Shown: in pieces, positions 6,108-32,976 of the stretch
How the letters are laid out: each line of letters starts with the position of its first letter
Numbering within the stretch: position 1 is the stretch's first letter
Assembly (NCBI RefSeq): GCF_045037415.1
Contig: NZ_CP173438.1
DNA length: 64,000 nt
Source: Escherichia coli
GTDB taxonomy: Bacteria > Pseudomonadota > Gammaproteobacteria > Enterobacterales > Enterobacteriaceae
Direction: 5' to 3' (one strand)
Position numbers and translations under genes: made by a program
Notes under the pieces: generated by a model
The model's input: only the letters and a program-made list of their open reading frames with translations
What the model was told of the DNA's origin: nothing
The model's database searches: none

Positions 6108-6129
6108 TGATTGAGATAATGAATAGATG

Positions 6130-7416
6130 TTACTGATGATTCATCATCAATTTACGCAACGCAGCAAAATCGGCGGGCAGGTTATGCGAAAGCAAGGGTA
6201 AATCAGCACGTTCTGCCAGCTCTTTTGGCAGATCCAACGTTTCACCGAGAATCGCTTCCACGCTCTCTTTAAATTTTGCCGGATGCGCGGTGCCGAGGAA
6301 CAAGCCATATTCGCCTGGATTCAACTGGTCACGCAGCGCACGATAAGCTACGGCAGCGTGCGGCTCCGAGGTATAGCCCAGTTCTTTTAACTCACGCATT
6401 GTCTGTTGCGTGGTTTCATCATCCACGGCTGCATACCCCAGCTCTTTCAGTTGCCAGATTTTGCGGCGGAACAACTCTTCCACACGCGGCCAGTTGTTTG
6501 GCTGGCTAACATCCATCGCATTGGATAACGTCGCCTGAGTCGCTTTGGGTGACCACTGACCGCCGTGCAGGAAACGTGGCACGGTATCATTCACGTTGGT
6601 CGCAGCAATAAAACGCTTCACCGGCAGGCCAAGAGATTTCGCCAGCAGGCCCGCTGTCAAATCGCCGAAGTTACCGCTCGGCACCGAGACAACCAGCTGG
6701 TTGCGCGCTTCCTGCGGCAACTGCGCCACGGCTTCAAAGTAGTAGCAAATCTGCGCCAGCAAACGGCTGATGTTAATGGAGTTAGCAGAGTTTAGCCCCA
6801 GCGCCACTTTCAGCTCTTCATCATCAAACGCCTGCTTCACCAGCGCCTGACAGGCATCGAAATCGCCGTCGATGGCAACAGTTTCGATATTGCCGCCCAA
6901 TGTACAGAACAGTTTTTCTTGCAGTGGACTGATTTTGCCTCGTGGATAGAGGATAACCACTTTCACATTCGGTAAACCGTAGAAAGCATGAGCCACTGCC
7001 GCTCCAGTATCACCGGATGTCGCGGTCAGAATGGTCACTGGCTTATCGCCCGCAATATGGGTCAGCATTTGTGCCATAAAGCGACCGCCGAAATCTTTAA
7101 ATGCCAGCGTTGGCCCGTGGAACAATTCCAGACAACCGACATCGCTTTCAACATTGGCGACCGGAGCCGGGAAGGCAAACGCCGCACGTACGCGCTCTTC
7201 CAGGATTTCCTGCGGGATTTCATCACCAATAAACGCCGAGAGGATCTTCGCACTGCGGGTGACAAAATCCAGCTTCAGCATCTCATCAATTTCAGTCAGG
7301 CTGAATTCCGGCAGGTCGTGCGGAAAAAACAGCCCCTGATTTTTGCCTAACCCCTGGGTTACGGCTTGCGCAAAGCTGACCTGCTCATTGTGATCTTTCA
7401 GATTGTAGAGTTTCAT
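6130..7416 (-). CDS. thrC: Threonine synthase, 428 aa
   Basis: ORF 6130..7416; PLP-dependent threonine synthase sequence; last gene of thrLABC. Confidence 0.97.
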   Translation of the reverse strand: MKLYNLKDHNEQVSFAQAVTQGLGKNQGLFFPHDLPEFSLTEIDEMLKLDFVTRSAKILSAFIGDEIPQEILEERVRAAFAFPAPVANVESDVGCLELFHGPTLAFKDFGGRFMAQMLTHIAGDKPVTILTATSGDTGAAVAHAFYGLPNVKVVILYPRGKISPLQEKLFCTLGGNIETVAIDGDFDACQALVKQAFDDEELKVALGLNSANSINISRLLAQICYYFEAVAQLPQEARNQLVVSVPSGNFGDLTAGLLAKSLGLPVKRFIAATNVNDTVPRFLHGGQWSPKATQATLSNAMDVSQPNNWPRVEELFRRKIWQLKELGYAAVDDETTQQTMRELKELGYTSEPHAAVAYRALRDQLNPGEYGLFLGTAHPAKFKESVEAILGETLDLPKELAERADLPLLSHNLPADFAALRKLMMNHQ

Positions 7417-27768: not shown

Positions 27769-28413
27769 ATGGCTCGCACAAAACTGAAATTCCGGCTGCA
27801 TCGGGCAGTGATTGTCCTGTTCTGTCTTGCCTTGTTAGTGGCGCTGATGCAGGGGGCGTCATGGTTTAGTCAAAACCACCAGCGACAGCGTAATCCGCAA
27901 CTGGAAGAACTGGCCCGCACCCTGGCGCGGCAGGTGACGCTAAACGTTGCACCGCTGATGCGTACCGACTCACCGGATGAAAAACGCATTCAGGCGATCC
28001 TCGATCAGTTAACGGATGAAAGCCGCATTCTCGACGCAGGCGTATATGATGAACAAGGCGATCTTATCGCCCGTTCTGGCGAAAGCGTCGACGTGCGCGA
28101 CCGGCTGGCGCTCGACGGCAAAAAAGCGGGCGGCTATTTTAATCAGCAGATTGTCGAACCCATTGCGGGTAAAAACGGACCGCTCGGCTATCTGCGCCTG
28201 ACGCTCGACACCCATACGCTCGCCACCGAAGCCCAACAGGTGGATAACACCACTAACATTTTACGCCTGATGTTGCTGCTCTCGCTGGCAATCGGCGTAG
28301 TGCTGACCCGCACGCTGCTACAGGGTAAACGCACCCGCTGGCAGCAATCGCCCTTCCTGTTAACCGCCAGCAAACCGGTGCCGGAAGAGGAAGAAAGCGA
28401 GAAAAAAGAGTGA
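27769..28413 (+). CDS. ytjB: Smp-family membrane protein YtjB, 214 aa
   Basis: ORF 27769..28413; N-terminal TM segment; synteny between serB and lplA. Confidence 0.85.
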   Translation: MARTKLKFRLHRAVIVLFCLALLVALMQGASWFSQNHQRQRNPQLEELARTLARQVTLNVAPLMRTDSPDEKRIQAILDQLTDESRILDAGVYDEQGDLIARSGESVDVRDRLALDGKKAGGYFNQQIVEPIAGKNGPLGYLRLTLDTHTLATEAQQVDNTTNILRLMLLLSLAIGVVLTRTLLQGKRTRWQQSPFLLTASKPVPEEEESEKKE

Positions 28414-28440
28414 CCCATTACTACAAGAAAGGAAATCGTT

Positions 28441-29457
28441 ATGTCCACATTACGCCTGCTCATCTCTGACTCTTACGACCCGTGGTTTAACCTGGCGGTA
28501 GAGGAGTGTATTTTTCGCCAGATGCCCGCCACGCAGCGCGTTCTGTTTCTCTGGCGCAATGCCGACACGGTAGTGATTGGTCGTGCGCAGAACCCGTGGA
28601 AAGAGTGTAATACCCGGCGGATGGAAGAAGATAACGTCCGCCTGGCGCGGCGCAGTAGCGGTGGCGGCGCGGTGTTCCACGATCTCGGCAATACCTGTTT
28701 TACCTTTATGGCTGGCAAGCCGGAGTACGATAAAACTATCTCCACGTCGATTGTGCTCAATGCGCTGAACGCGCTTGGCGTCAGCGCCGAAGCTTCCGGG
28801 CGTAACGATCTGGTGGTGAAAACCGCCGAAGGCGACCGCAAAGTCTCAGGCTCGGCCTATCGCGAAACCAAAGATCGTGGCTTCCACCACGGCACTTTGC
28901 TGCTCAATGCCGACCTTAGCCGCCTGGCAAACTATCTCAATCCGGATAAAAAGAAACTGGCGGCGAAAGGCATTACCTCAGTGCGTTCCCGCGTGACCAA
29001 TCTGACCGAATTGCTACCGGGGATCACCCATGAGCAGGTTTGCGAGGCCATAACCGAGGCCTTTTTCGCCCATTATGGCGAGCGCGTGGAAGCGGAAATC
29101 ATCTCCCCGGACAAAACGCCAGACTTGCCAAACTTCGCCGAAACCTTTGCCCGCCAGAGTAGCTGGGAATGGAACTTCGGTCAGGCTCCGGCATTCTCGC
29201 ATCTGCTGGATGAACGCTTTACCTGGGGCGGCGTGGAACTGCATTTCGACGTTGAAAAAGGCCATATCACCCGCGCCCAGGTGTTTACCGACAGTCTCAA
29301 CCCCGCGCCGCTGGAAGCCCTCGCCGGGCGACTGCAAGGCTGTCTGTACCGCGCGGATATGCTGCAACAGGAGTGCGAAGCGCTGCTGGTTGACTTCCAG
29401 GAACAGGAAAAAGAGCTACGGGAGTTGTCGGCATGGATGGCAGGGGCGGTGCGGTAG
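28441..29457 (+). CDS. lplA: Lipoate-protein ligase A, 338 aa
   Basis: ORF 28441..29457; motif [21 protein letters not shown]. Confidence 0.95.
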
Positions 29458-30789
29458 TTACCCACCCATGCGGGTAACTTTCTCTTCGATTTGCCGGATT
29501 TTTTCCGGCATTTCTTGCGCAATGTGGCGAAACGCCTCGCTGATACGCGGATCTCTGGCGACCGTTTGCCAGAACTGCTGCGCCAGCGGGATCGCCGTTA
29601 ACCATGCGCTTTTACTGATGTTAAGATCAAACTTCACCTCAATGGCAGCATCACGCAGCATTCCGGCGCTGTTTGGCGCATAGGCCATCGGCAGCATGTC
29701 GTAGACGGGTGTCAGCGCAAATGGTGGTTCAGATAAATAAAATGATAAATTGCCTGCGTGCATATCGCTGTTGGCGATAAGTCGCCCAAACGCCCAGATC
29801 ACTTCTGTTTGCGCCACGCTCTGGTGAGTGACAAGTTGTTGCTCACACAAATGCCGCATTGCCTCCGGCCACGATCCCGGAGAAGAGATAAACTCACTTT
29901 GCACCGCCTCCAGCGACACAATGGGCAAGCGACCATCGTTACCTTTGCAGTCAAAGCGTTCCGCTTCCAGGAATACCTGCCTGTTACTTGTTACAAGCAC
30001 CGTTGACTCGATGGCGTGGATCCCGCCGTCACGCAGGATTTGCGCGGCAATAGATTCAGCAATTAGCAGGTCCCCCCAACGTTGGCTGACTGCGGTTTGC
30101 TGTGGCACGGTGAATTTCACCAACACATGTTTATTGCCTGACGGCGTTTGTGCATAGCAGGTAAATTTTGGCTGCTCGCCGCCCGCAGAAGAACCCACAA
30201 TTTCTCCAGCCAGAGCATCGCTTGCCAACTGTTCGTAACGGGTGAGTTTTTGATCCAAAGGAATTTCCGCAGGGCGTTGTGCAGTAATCCATCGCTGATA
30301 ATTCCCCTCCCCGACCAACCAACCGCCAGTATATTCACCGTTAAATACGGTCAGGGCGTAGAGCACATCTTCTTCCTGCCAGAGACGTATATCATCAGTC
30401 AGATTCAGTTGCGCGGCTAACTTTCTGCCCCACGCGCGCCCTAAAAAGCCCTGCGGTCGGAGATCGGTCAAATACCAGGGCAAACCATCAAACCACTGTT
30501 CGTCGCCATCTGCGCCTGTTACCAGACAACTTCCCTGTGGCCAGCACAACCGGATGTCGGCGAATTTATGCGCCTTTCCGGCATCGTCCACCCGCCAGAC
30601 GGGAATACGCTCAATTCCGCGATAAGGACGCAGCAGTACATATCGCGTTGCCCGTGCTTTACCAAAGCGAATCACCCGATTTTCTCTGGCAACAAGGCGT
30701 GAGAACGTCGCCTGACTGATTGCCAGACGCTGGCGCAATTCCGGGGCAGAACGCGGCCCTTGCAGTAAAAGATCGGTCAGTTCGCTCAT
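29458..30789 (-). CDS. yjjJ: HipA-like Ser/Thr kinase with N-terminal HTH domain (YjjJ), 443 aa
   Basis: ORF 29458..30789; HipA-like catalytic motif SDMHAGNLSF and nucleotide-binding GGEQPKF; N-terminal HTH-like segment; stop abuts lplA stop. Confidence 0.85.
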   Translation of the reverse strand: MSELTDLLLQGPRSAPELRQRLAISQATFSRLVARENRVIRFGKARATRYVLLRPYRGIERIPVWRVDDAGKAHKFADIRLCWPQGSCLVTGADGDEQWFDGLPWYLTDLRPQGFLGRAWGRKLAAQLNLTDDIRLWQEEDVLYALTVFNGEYTGGWLVGEGNYQRWITAQRPAEIPLDQKLTRYEQLASDALAGEIVGSSAGGEQPKFTCYAQTPSGNKHVLVKFTVPQQTAVSQRWGDLLIAESIAAQILRDGGIHAIESTVLVTSNRQVFLEAERFDCKGNDGRLPIVSLEAVQSEFISSPGSWPEAMRHLCEQQLVTHQSVAQTEVIWAFGRLIANSDMHAGNLSFYLSEPPFALTPVYDMLPMAYAPNSAGMLRDAAIEVKFDLNISKSAWLTAIPLAQQFWQTVARDPRISEAFRHIAQEMPEKIRQIEEKVTRMGG

Positions 30790-30955
30790 TAATGAATAGA
30801 TTCGTGAATAGATACTTGAATAGATTTATTAACATATTTCACTGAAAAGTATAGCGAAAATATTCAAGCTGGAGAGATAAATGAATAAATACTAAAAAGC
30901 CGGAGCAGTCTCCCACTCCGGCTTCACACGACAATCGCCTTTCAGCAAAACACAA

Positions 30956-31675
30956 TTACTCTTTATCGCCCAGCAGAACGGATTCCAGCGCGATTTTGAT
31001 CATGTCGTTGAAGGTGGTCTGACGCTCAGCGGCAGTGGTCTGCTCGTGAGTGCGGATGTGGTCAGACACGGTGCAGATGGTCAGGGCTTTCGCGCCAAAT
31101 TCTGCAGCGACGCCGTAGATACCCGCCGCTTCCATTTCCACGCCGAGGATGCCGTATTTTTCCATCACGTCGAACATTTCGCCGTCCGGAGAGTAGAACA
31201 GGTCAGCGGAGAACAGGTTACCAACGCGAGCATCAACGCCCAGTGCTTTTGCCGCGTCTACCGCGTTACGCACCATGTCGAAGTCAGCGATAGCGGCAAA
31301 GTCATGGTCTTTAAAACGGATGCGGTTAACTTTGGAATCGGTGCAGGCACCCATACCGATAACGACGTCGCGCAGTTTTACGTGCGGCAGAACAGCGCCA
31401 CAGGAACCCACGCGGATAATTTTCTTCACGCCGAAATCAGTGATCAGTTCTTTGGTGTAGATGGAGCAGGACGGGATACCCATACCGTGGCCCATTACGG
31501 AAATTTTGCGGCCTTTGTAAGTACCAGTGAAGCCCAGCATACCGCGAACGTTGTTCACTTCACGGGCATCTTCAAGGAAAGTTTCAGCAATATACTTCGC
31601 ACGCAGCGGGTCGCCTGGCATCAAAACTACGTCAGCAAAATCGCCCATTTCTGCATTAATGTGTGGAGTAGCCAT
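30956..31675 (-). CDS. deoD: Purine nucleoside phosphorylase DeoD, 239 aa (start [16 protein letters not shown])
   Basis: ORF 30956..31732; PNP-I family sequence; last gene of deoCABD. Confidence 0.96.
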
Positions 31676-31731
31676 CGTTTTATCCTTTTTGTGACATATT
31701 AAAGGCGGAGTCACTGCTCCGCCCAAATCCA

Positions 31732-32976
<1,245 letters not shown>

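Follow-up and report, generated by a model that had tools for sequence, protein, structure and literature searches.

hipH (yjjJ) of Escherichia coli, a stand-alone HipA-type kinase gene preceded by direct repeats that may be its own operator

The hipH locus and its distribution

The window analyzed here is a 64,000-nucleotide stretch of Escherichia coli DNA, in which an ATG-initiated ORF on the minus strand was verified to encode 443 amino acids plus a stop codon (Table 1). Judged by its sequence, this ORF is hipH (yjjJ), a HipA-type kinase gene already characterized in E. coli: the product is 98% identical to K-12 HipH (b4385), with 11 amino acid substitutions, none of them in motifs, and residues 1 to 442 score 672 bits with the NCBIfam YjjJ equivalog NF007297, against a cutoff of 401 (E = 3.5e-202), in agreement with the RefSeq annotation. 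An earlier note on this DNA had described a 443-residue HipA-like kinase fused to an HTH domain in a single polypeptide, its gene flanked by deoD and a convergent lplA, without an antitoxin gene next to it. That description, which is the HipH family as defined by Gerdes 2021 (PMC8262856), is borne out in every part, and the two motifs quoted in the note, GGEQPKF and SDMHAGNLSF, are residues 203 to 209 and 341 to 350, respectively. The note also held that the target of the kinase and the way it is neutralized are not evident from the sequence; the gene is not unexplored, however, since overexpression, kinase-dead, and phosphoproteomic tests were published between 2017 and 2024. The finding of hipH is itself already known, the gene having been named, annotated, and studied experimentally.

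The lplA stop codon (TAG, 29455 to 29457) directly adjoins that of hipH (TTA on the plus strand, 29458 to 29460), and the layout in K-12 is identical (hipH at 4621769 to 4623100, lplA at 4623101 to 4624117). Strictly read, the statement in the earlier note that this abutment leaves no intergenic terminator is correct, yet it misleads, because two stable hairpins in the lplA sense (29455 to 29482, and 29492 to 29510 with a T-rich tail after it) lie within the last ~55 nt of hipH, inside its 3′ coding end, and are a candidate lplA terminator. No intrinsic terminator was recognizable for hipH itself (z = +0.5). Upstream, a 166-bp gap containing a strong terminator separates hipH from deoD.

Table 1. 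Features of the hipH locus, in window coordinates
Feature	Position	Strand	Basis and remarks
lplA, convergent neighbor	28441..29457	+	ORF, annotation
Two hairpins directly following the lplA stop, within the 3′ end of the hipH CDS; candidate lplA terminator	29455..29517	+	Folding, dG -28.2 kcal/mol, z = -4.7
hipH (yjjJ) CDS	29458..30789	-	ORF, NCBIfam match, 98% identity to b4385
YDMLP, codons 363-367, with Mg2+-binding D364	29689..29703	-	Aligns to HipA D332; 364 mutated in published kinase-dead variant
Catalytic loop SDMHAGNLSF, codons 341-350 (D342, H344, N347)	29740..29769	-	Alignment; 342 mutated in published kinase-dead variant
Codon K225 (VKF), inferred ATP-binding lysine	30115..30117	-	Invariant; role inferred from HipA family
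Gly-rich (ATP-binding) loop GSSAGGEQPKF, codons 199-209	30163..30195	-	Invariant in alignment; S200/S201 autophosphorylation from Gratani 2022
Four-stranded beta subdomain of N-terminal extension, codons 60-100	30490..30612	-	AF2 models, Foldseek
Winged HTH, codons 1-55; recognition helix I24-R31 (ISQATFSR); wing R46, T48, Y50	30625..30789	-	AF2, Foldseek, 41-ortholog alignment
Three direct repeats of ATCTATTCA, candidate HipH operator (30825-30817, 30813-30805, 30801-30793)	30793..30825	-	Copy count; conservation and covariation, 80 loci
-10-like hexamer AATAAA (TATAAA in most relatives), inferred; overlaps first base of repeat 1	30825..30830	-	Alignment; weak in window strain
-35-like hexamer TATACT (CTTTAC/TTTACA in relatives), inferred	30848..30853	-	Alignment
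Fourth, distal copy at -101; ATTTATTCA in the window strain, K-12 has ATCTATTCA	30882..30890	-	Alignment of 19 Enterobacterales sequences
deoD intrinsic terminator, insulating hipH from the deoCABD operon	30896..30925	-	dG -22.5 kcal/mol, z = -5.5
deoD, upstream neighbor, co-oriented with hipH	30956..31675	-	ORF, annotation, synteny

Among 5426 complete E. coli genomes, 1346 carry hipH, always as a full-length, single-copy gene that was never found on a plasmid. Undetected divergent alleles were considered as a cause of this low prevalence and rejected, because a word-11 blastn search with an internal 601-nt probe found the identical 1346 genomes, all at an identity of at least 95%. In most of the hipH-less genomes sampled, hipH is precisely replaced by an ORF for an 87-residue XRE-type protein, and tblastn detected no hipH remnant in either of the two hipH-less loci checked. 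The 87-residue protein, which has weak PADLOC HTH matches, was discarded as a HipB-like candidate, since it gave no BLASTP alignment and has only a generic HTH_3 domain. Since about 75% of the complete E. coli genomes lack hipH, conclusions on biofilm persistence drawn from K-12 or from a single UPEC isolate cannot be extended to the species as a whole.

Nearly all Enterobacterales loci that were recovered, those of Yersinia, Serratia, and Erwinia among them, have hipH after deoD, and in Enterobacterales hipH is an ancient gene of this site, passed on by vertical descent. No lineage examined has a linked antitoxin: the locus has no conserved small ORF, intergenic conservation being limited to short footprints; no neighbor family recurred in 48 non-Enterobacterales hipH loci; and, near-identical Nitrosomonas contigs aside, no recurrent ORF family that might be a hidden partner flanked hipH in 80 loci. 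Apparent “downstream ORFs” of hipH in Enterobacterales are antisense to lplA or smp. Among the PADLOC defense-system models, no family matched HipH at an E value of 0.01 or below.

The kinase domain and the N-terminal winged HTH

Pfam HipA_C (PF07804) matched residues 200 to 429 at E = 6.9e-21, with 75.3 bits against a cutoff of 30.5, which puts the kinase assignment far above chance. The catalytic Asp, His, and Asn residues whose absence would have spoken against it in the earlier note are all present: D342, H344, and N347, together with D364, K225, and the Gly-rich loop from G199 to F209, are invariant in 41 orthologs with identities of 46 to 95%. D342, H344, N347, and D364 align to HipA D309, H311, N314, and D332, respectively. 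A sequence search of the PDB found no experimental HipH structure and gave HipT(Lp) as the best match to a HipH profile (E = 3.3e-8). With the AF2 model (pLDDT of 90.2, pTM of 0.88) as the query, Foldseek retrieved HipA, HipT, and CtkA structures at E values down to 1.8e-11, the HipA structures 4pu4, 3tpt, and 3dnt matching at 1e-11 to 1e-9. In the alignments and the model, the HipH active site is of the HipA type, complete, and invariant, and the predicted fold is HipA-like.

In vitro, K-12 HipH autophosphorylates, with S200 and S201 as the sites, and phosphorylates CsrA and RpmE (ribosomal protein L31); its overproduction is toxic and is rescued by HipB, and no antibiotic tolerance was observed in planktonic assays (Gratani 2022). 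The published kinase assays and phosphoproteomics thus agree with the kinase assignment.

The HTH falls below the Pfam thresholds (MarR_2 at 14 bits, HTH_20 likewise), and it is modeled at a pLDDT of 90 to 97 in AF2 models; S25, Q26, S30, R31, R46, T48, and Y50 are invariant in the 41 orthologs. In Foldseek, the ArsR/SmtB repressors HlyU, SqrR, BigR, and NolR superpose on residues 1 to 55 with an rmsd of 1.6 to 2.0 Å and 20 to 31% identity, and such matches have a probability of 1.0, yet E values of only 0.15 to 0.4 over 50 to 55 residues. The HipH domain is shorter than those of these repressors, and its model has no post-wing helix matching the dimerization helix of the family. The usual targets of ArsR-type winged HTH proteins are palindromes, bound as dimers, and direct repeats are not usual, which counts against the candidate sites of HipH described below, as these are direct repeats. 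For the beta subdomain of residues 60 to 100, Foldseek gave no convincing structural relative. HipH is thus very probably a stand-alone HipA-superfamily Ser/Thr kinase with a ~100-residue N-terminal extension that carries an ArsR-like winged HTH and may allow self-control at the DNA level.

This architecture can be placed among known systems. The same gene in K-12 has the same neighbors, the same stop abutment, and the same upstream repeats, and differs from that of the window in the 11 substitutions and in the distal repeat. HipA of E. coli hipBA has in common with HipH the kinase fold, a Gly-rich loop with an autophosphorylated Ser, the D-x-H-x-x-N motif, and the Mg-binding Asp; overproduction of either kinase is toxic, rescue by HipB has been reported in each case, and each system includes an HTH that could act on promoter DNA. 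Pairwise BLASTP similarity of the two kinases is nevertheless confined to ~30 residues, their substrates differ (GltX for HipA, CsrA and L31 for HipH), and where hipBA has an adjoining hipB encoding a Cro/XRE HTH protein that binds palindromes, HipH has no such neighbor and carries in cis a winged ArsR-like HTH with a candidate operator of direct repeats. The kinase core of HipT (HipBST) is collinear with HipH residues ~100 to 443, with a pair of serines in the Gly-rich loop of each (Gerdes 2021, PMC8262856), but HipT is neutralized by a separate HipS and regulated by a separate HipB, neither of which HipH has as a neighbor. Like EzeT (cited by Gerdes 2021, PMC8262856) and HipL, which have a cis-acting antitoxin or regulatory domain, HipH combines a toxic catalytic domain and a proposed control domain in one polypeptide, although the proposed role of its N-terminal domain is transcriptional and its HTH is required for toxicity according to Liao 2024 (PMC11452175). 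Unlike a canonical type II toxin-antitoxin module, it lacks an adjacent cotranscribed antitoxin gene, the flanks being the deoD terminator and the convergent lplA. The window protein combines the equivalog match, the N-terminal HTH extension, and a monocistronic gene without a HipB or HipS gene, which places it in the HipH/YjjJ family, the monocistronic clade with an N-terminal HTH designated Hip kinase clade X (Gerdes 2021, PMC8262856); HipA_C, the catalytic loop with the Mg2+-binding Asp, the Gly-rich loop, and the predicted fold place it in the HipA superfamily.

Direct repeats upstream of hipH

Exact copies of ATCTATTCA occur four times in the 64 kb, against 0.23 expected, and three of the four sit within a 33-bp stretch upstream of hipH, where they follow each other with a 12-bp period from the -10-like element to 3 nt before the ATG. 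The distal copy precedes the first of these three repeats by 65 bp and has one mismatch in the window strain; across 19 Enterobacterales sequences, seven of its nine columns are invariant and the remaining two almost invariant. A consensus scan of 29100 to 31100 gave no sigma-70 promoter, and the putative hipH promoter, weak in the window strain, was placed solely by alignment to relatives. The conserved intergenic columns are those of the repeats, the -35 and -10 elements, and the distal site, with no others. The gene has no Shine-Dalgarno sequence, the repeats abut the ATG, and Rfam gave nothing credible across 28300 to 31800.

A triple repeat (11- to 13-bp period, score of at least 7/10) lies upstream of 64% of 80 hipH loci, from Enterobacterales to Betaproteobacteria, whereas the identical criterion picked out 0.06% of the random windows and 0.13% of the shuffles. 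Its sequence varies with the recognition helix: Gln at position 26 goes with repeat units ending in ATTCA, and Arg26, present in two separate clades, goes with a G at unit position 4 (AT[TC]GATGCA in Rheinheimera/Alishewanella, ATCGnnnCA in Comamonas), a covariation based on just two or three lineages that changed independently. In the literature, the repeat sequence turned up solely in primers and shRNAs that have nothing to do with it, and on yjjJ autoregulation we found nothing beyond speculation. The repeats, the one new thing found here, may on this comparative evidence be a HipH auto-operator.

If so, the HipH HTH would bind the three head-to-tail ATCTATTCA repeats between the -10 element and the start codon, as well as the fourth site about six helical turns upstream, and operator-bound HipH would repress the hipH gene, which is weak already and has no Shine-Dalgarno sequence. 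In that case, a single polypeptide would unite the role of HipA (kinase) and that of HipB (operator-binding repressor), which are split between two proteins elsewhere, and autophosphorylation of the Gly-rich loop and the reported trans factors HipB and c-di-GMP would add posttranslational restraint. That HipH controls itself at the DNA level we hold to be slightly on the probable side. We also count toward an operator three reported observations: the HTH is needed for toxicity, HipH is located at the nucleoid, and c-di-GMP elicits a response of the hipH promoter (Liao 2024, PMC11452175).

Alternative readings and the source of toxicity

The repeats might instead be the site of another regulator, or an RNA element of the Shine-Dalgarno-less leader that sets translation, with the HTH serving, for example, nucleoid tethering or substrate targeting; we consider this rather doubtful. 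It would fit the ChIP-exo experiment with myc-tagged YjjJ in K-12, which gave 0 binding peaks, at a native expression that is very low, and whose authors did not recognize the HTH (Gao 2021, PMC8464067), and it would fit the persistence of the repeats, with hardly any change, in the ~3900 hipH-less E. coli genomes, which means that their conservation within E. coli is not attributable to HipH. In most lineages, moreover, the repeats would fall in the transcribed 5′ untranslated region, directly before the ATG, and the hipH leader is unstructured (z = -0.8). Across unrelated contexts in Gamma- and Betaproteobacteria, however, the repeats travel with hipH, so that any other regulator would need the same distribution, and they shift in sequence together with the HipH recognition helix. 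Those of Rheinheimera/Alishewanella are 52 to 65 nt away from the ATG and either precede or cover the promoter, a placement that favors a role in DNA over one in mRNA, and the block occurs just once per E. coli genome. It is far less probable that hipH in E. coli is a dispensable remnant heading for loss and without current function. The limited prevalence, promoter hexamers that are degenerate relative to those of other Enterobacterales, and the very low native expression and lack of a growth phenotype on deletion or silencing in published work all point that way, but the ORF is intact wherever it is present, its catalytic and HTH residues are all preserved, comparison with K-12 and E. albertii gives dN/dS ratios of 0.12 and 0.17, respectively, and hipH knockout phenotypes have been reported in biofilm and bladder infection (Liao 2024, PMC11452175).

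Two laboratories disagree on whether kinase or DNase activity makes HipH toxic. According to one, the relevant toxicity is HTH-dependent DNA cleavage and not phosphorylation: truncations without the HTH were nontoxic, whereas a deletion of residues 340 to 372 was still toxic, HipH-GFP cut plasmid DNA in vitro, HipH induced the SOS response and Gam-GFP foci, and biotin-c-di-GMP pulled down HipH (KD of ~7.6 µM), cleavage being suppressed by c-di-GMP, which was proposed as an antitoxin to a DNase activity that HipB does not inhibit (Liao 2024, PMC11452175). DNA degradation and RecA induction were also seen by Gratani 2022, although there the kinase-dead variant with substitutions at 342 and 364 showed diminished toxicity, a result with which the continued toxicity of the 340-372 deletion conflicts. 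We judge the DNase reading unlikely. No nuclease domain or fold was detected in HipH, Pfam giving HipA_C only and Foldseek only HipA, HipT, CtkA, and other kinases, plus winged HTH regulators for the N-terminal domain, and the catalytic residues of the kinase are still invariant in betaproteobacterial orthologs down to 37% identity, which would be hard to explain if the kinase were dispensable. The 33-residue internal deletion may misfold, no catalytic point mutant excluded a contaminating nuclease in the GFP fusion, which is poorly soluble, and the cleavage assays used c-di-GMP at a millimolar level (Liao 2024, PMC11452175).

Returning to self-repression, we put forward its fullest form tentatively, as somewhat short of probable: HipH would be a self-repressing “one-protein hipBA” whose operator, conserved from Enterobacterales to Betaproteobacteria, has coevolved with the recognition helix, unit position 4 being T where residue 26 is Gln and G where it is Arg, and whose inducer would be c-di-GMP. 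That c-di-GMP frees HipH from the operator is speculation; its reported binding to HipH and its raising of hipH promoter activity (Liao 2024, PMC11452175) are what would be expected of such a release. The repeat array offers a possible mechanistic link to the c-di-GMP induction of the hipH promoter and a concrete, cheap experimental handle on how a toxic kinase without a linked antitoxin is restrained.

Identity of hipH and its kinase domain

The gene yjjJ, which the earlier note had described as a HipA-like kinase fused to an HTH domain, is already known under the name hipH and has been studied experimentally; its novelty is correspondingly low. The 443-aa ORF, its GGEQPKF (residues 203-209) and SDMHAGNLSF (residues 341-350) motifs and its deoD and convergent lplA flanks are all real in the window sequence (see the table), as is the adjoining of the two stop codons: the TTA directly after the lplA TAG is the complement of the hipH TAA stop, so that the convergent genes abut with no spacer. 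Megablast identified the window as E. coli, with 100% identity to several complete genomes; its HipH is 98% identical (432/443) to K-12 b4385, whose RefSeq name is now “serine/threonine-protein kinase toxin HipH,” and the identical protein occurs on at least 1000 public contigs. The match to the NCBIfam equivalog “type II toxin-antitoxin system HipA family toxin YjjJ” runs end to end (672 bits; cut-off, 401), and Pfam HipA_C matches residues 200-429 (E = 6.9e-21). These results confirmed the earlier observation and support its interpretation.

Features of the hipH locus in the window
Feature	Coordinates	Strand	Comment
lplA	28441-29457	plus	TAG stop at 29455-29457
Two lplA-sense hairpins	29455-29482, 29492-29510 (within 29455-29517)	plus	right after the lplA stop; candidate lplA terminator
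hipH ORF, 443 codons	29458-30789	minus	window sequence
hipH CDS replaced in hipH-less loci	29458-30786		versus L001 3215-3509, L003 3215-3509 and L002; XRE ORF on the strand opposite hipH
Three perfect direct repeats of ATCTATTCA	30825-30817, 30813-30805, 30801-30793	minus	12-bp period, directly before the ATG
Inferred hipH -35/-10 hexamers	30825-30853	minus	E. coli/E. albertii: TATACT or TTTACA, AATAAA
Distal fourth repeat copy	30882-30890	minus	at about -101 in relatives
deoD intrinsic terminator, strong	30896-30925		dG -22.5 kcal/mol, z = -5.5
deoD	30956-31675	minus	same orientation as hipH, upstream of it

The experiments proposed in the earlier note have essentially already been published, with partly conflicting answers. 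YjjJ-like kinases form clade X of the Hip tree and were renamed HipH; they are monocistronic, carry an N-terminal HTH at residues 15-34, and are controlled by a means that “remains unknown” (Gerdes et al. 2021, PMC8262856). HipH toxicity was found to be dose dependent and accompanied by filamentation, with antibiotic tolerance unaffected; HipH autophosphorylates at S200, S201 and S217 and directly phosphorylates CsrA (S56/S59) and L31 (S69) (Gratani et al. 2022, PMC9948734). According to Liao et al. (2024, PMC11452175), toxicity requires the HTH, HipH-GFP cleaves plasmid DNA, and c-di-GMP binds HipH (KD ~7.6 uM), suppresses the cleavage and raises hipH transcription via the hipH promoter. The two accounts collide over the kinase site, since HipH mutated at 342 and 364 was less toxic (PMC9948734), whereas HipH deleted for 340-372 was still toxic, reportedly fully (PMC11452175). 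Likewise, HipB overexpression rescued HipH-intoxicated cells (PMC9948734), yet HipB did not inhibit the claimed DNase in vitro (PMC11452175). The remaining interest lies in how HipH is controlled and in the kinase/DNase dispute, together with a testable operator hypothesis, which arose in the present analysis, and a presence/absence polymorphism within the species.

The catalytic Asp, His and Asn residues expected of a HipA-like kinase are present: across 41 aligned orthologues (46-95% identity), K225, D342, H344, N347 and D364 are invariant, as is the whole Gly-rich loop G199-S200-S201-A-G-G-E-Q-P-K-F. BLASTP against K-12 HipA aligned only the catalytic segment, pairing HipH D342/H344/N347/D364 in register with HipA D309/H311/N314/D332. 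A PDB search returned no deposited HipH structure; an AlphaFold2 model based on this alignment was confident (pLDDT 90.2, pTM 0.88), and with it Foldseek retrieved S. oneidensis and E. coli HipA (E 1.8e-11 to 1e-9), as well as HipT and CtkA. Neither sequence (Pfam) nor structure (Foldseek) searches found a nuclease domain, and the kinase site is strictly kept even in orthologues only ~37% identical. For these two reasons, we favour kinase activity over DNA cleavage as the selected function of HipH.

The N-terminal domain and a candidate operator

The HTH-like segment of the earlier note is modelled as an ArsR/SmtB-like winged HTH. Residues 1-55 are predicted to form three helices and a beta-hairpin wing, and a separate model of residues 1-112 reached a pLDDT of 92.7. 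Pfam HTH models scored below threshold against the N terminus; the best structural matches were the ArsR/SmtB-type repressors HlyU, SqrR, BigR, NolR and SmtB (1.6-2.0 A rmsd over 50-55 residues), whose E-values, at 0.15 or higher, are weak owing to the small size of the domain. Like the kinase motifs, four helix residues (S25, Q26, S30 and R31) and three in the wing (R46, T48 and Y50) are invariant across the 41 orthologues. Residues 60-100 are modelled as a four-stranded beta unit, for which a structural search gave no convincing relative.

The 166-bp deoD-hipH gap, which opens with the deoD terminator, carries the 9-mer ATCTATTCA as three direct repeats; exact copies number four in the window, against 0.23 expected. 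In Salmonella, Erwinia and most other Enterobacterales examined, the triple repeat ends 1-4 nt 5' of the start codon. Intergenic conservation in a 19-species alignment is confined to the three repeats, the distal copy and two promoter-like elements, a -35-like CTTTAC and, abutting repeat 1, a -10-like GCTATAA. Betaproteobacterial orthologues have TATAAT- or TACAAT-like hexamers followed by units of the same type. A periodic triple (11-13-bp period, at least 7/10 identical columns) is present in 64% of the 90-nt upstream regions of 80 hipH loci, against 0.06% of random windows drawn from those loci and 0.13% of shuffles.

The units also vary with the putative recognition helix. All loci with the helix x-S-Q-x-T-x-S-R have the unit core ATTCA; a Rheinheimera/Alishewanella clade has C-D-R-S-T-x-T-R with units AT[T/C]GATGCA, and a Comamonas clade has V-S-R-[P/A]-T-L-A-R with units ATCGnnnCA, so that G occupies unit position 4 in both cases of an independent Gln26-to-Arg change, a covariation based on few independent events. 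In Rheinheimera, the array is 52-65 nt away from the ATG, a distance that argues for a function at the DNA level. The simplest interpretation is that HipH binds the repeats, as an operator, through its HTH and represses its own promoter. The repeat block is nearly unchanged in E. coli strains without hipH, and ChIP-exo with myc-tagged YjjJ in K-12 gave no peaks (Gao et al. 2021, PMC8464067), a negative result qualified by the very low native expression reported for HipH. The literature searched held no description of the element. One further exact copy occurs at 6120-6128 (minus strand), between a 428-aa ORF (6130-7416; from its position and length, thrC), whose stop lies 1 nt before it, and that operon's terminator hairpin; being isolated, it is probably due to chance.

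Expression signals and the lplA junction

The hipH hexamers of E. coli and E. albertii are degenerate compared with the CTTTAC-N17-TATAAA of other Enterobacterales, a consensus promoter scan called no promoter upstream of hipH, and a Shine-Dalgarno sequence is absent between repeat 3 and the ATG in all species aligned; the leader RNA is unstructured. Both the degenerate hexamers and the missing Shine-Dalgarno sequence fit the very low reported expression, and we infer that weak transcription and weak translation would be additional ways of keeping HipH scarce.

The earlier statement that the junction with lplA leaves no intergenic terminator holds in that there is no intergenic space, but terminator-like lplA-sense hairpins lie inside the 3' end of hipH, in its last ~55 nt, which encode the final ~18 residues. 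The second is rich in GC and precedes an AUUUCUU stretch, and together they fold at -28.2 kcal/mol (z = -4.7), a value equalled by 0/200 shuffles. The hipH-sense RNA past the hipH stop showed no significant structure (z = +0.5) and no recognisable terminator; transcripts of hipH probably continue antisense into lplA.

Inheritance and loss of hipH

The deoD-hipH order is kept in nearly all Enterobacterales loci recovered (including Salmonella, Citrobacter, Leclercia, Kosakonia, Buttiauxella, Cedecea, Erwinia, Yersinia and Serratia), with convergent lplA or smp downstream. The gene sits in other contexts in 48 loci from Rheinheimera, Alishewanella and many Betaproteobacteria, where no neighbouring ORF family recurs beyond near-identical contigs. 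The absence of an adjacent antitoxin gene thus extends well beyond this locus, and hipH is an ancient gene that has been inherited vertically and without a partner, rather than a hipBA that has decayed. Where present in Escherichia, hipH is under purifying selection (dN/dS 0.12 versus K-12 and 0.17 versus E. albertii; lplA and deoD, 0.02-0.03).

Only 1346/5426 complete E. coli genomes carry hipH, always on the chromosome, at 95% identity or more and, in all but one, as a single copy; sensitive blastn with an internal probe returned the same 1346. In ~3,580 others, the sole match to a hipH-to-deoD query was a 169-bp segment at the deoD end, over which a small helix-turn-helix gene is annotated. 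In the hipH-less genomes inspected, the lplA-deoD interval holds an 87-codon XRE-type HTH ORF, encoded on the same strand as lplA, together with a 31-bp spacer; the ORF product has no relationship to HipB detectable by BLASTP. The replacement is exact, from the lplA stop codon to the hipH start codon, and the TGA of the XRE ORF consequently lies in repeat 3. Given the synteny of hipH throughout the order, it is the XRE allele that is derived. The XRE ORF is a pseudogene in one inspected locus and IS-interrupted in another: in E. coli TBE6 (L002, 2366-4175), the interval has also gained IS5-family (ISKpn26) and IS200C elements, which split it.
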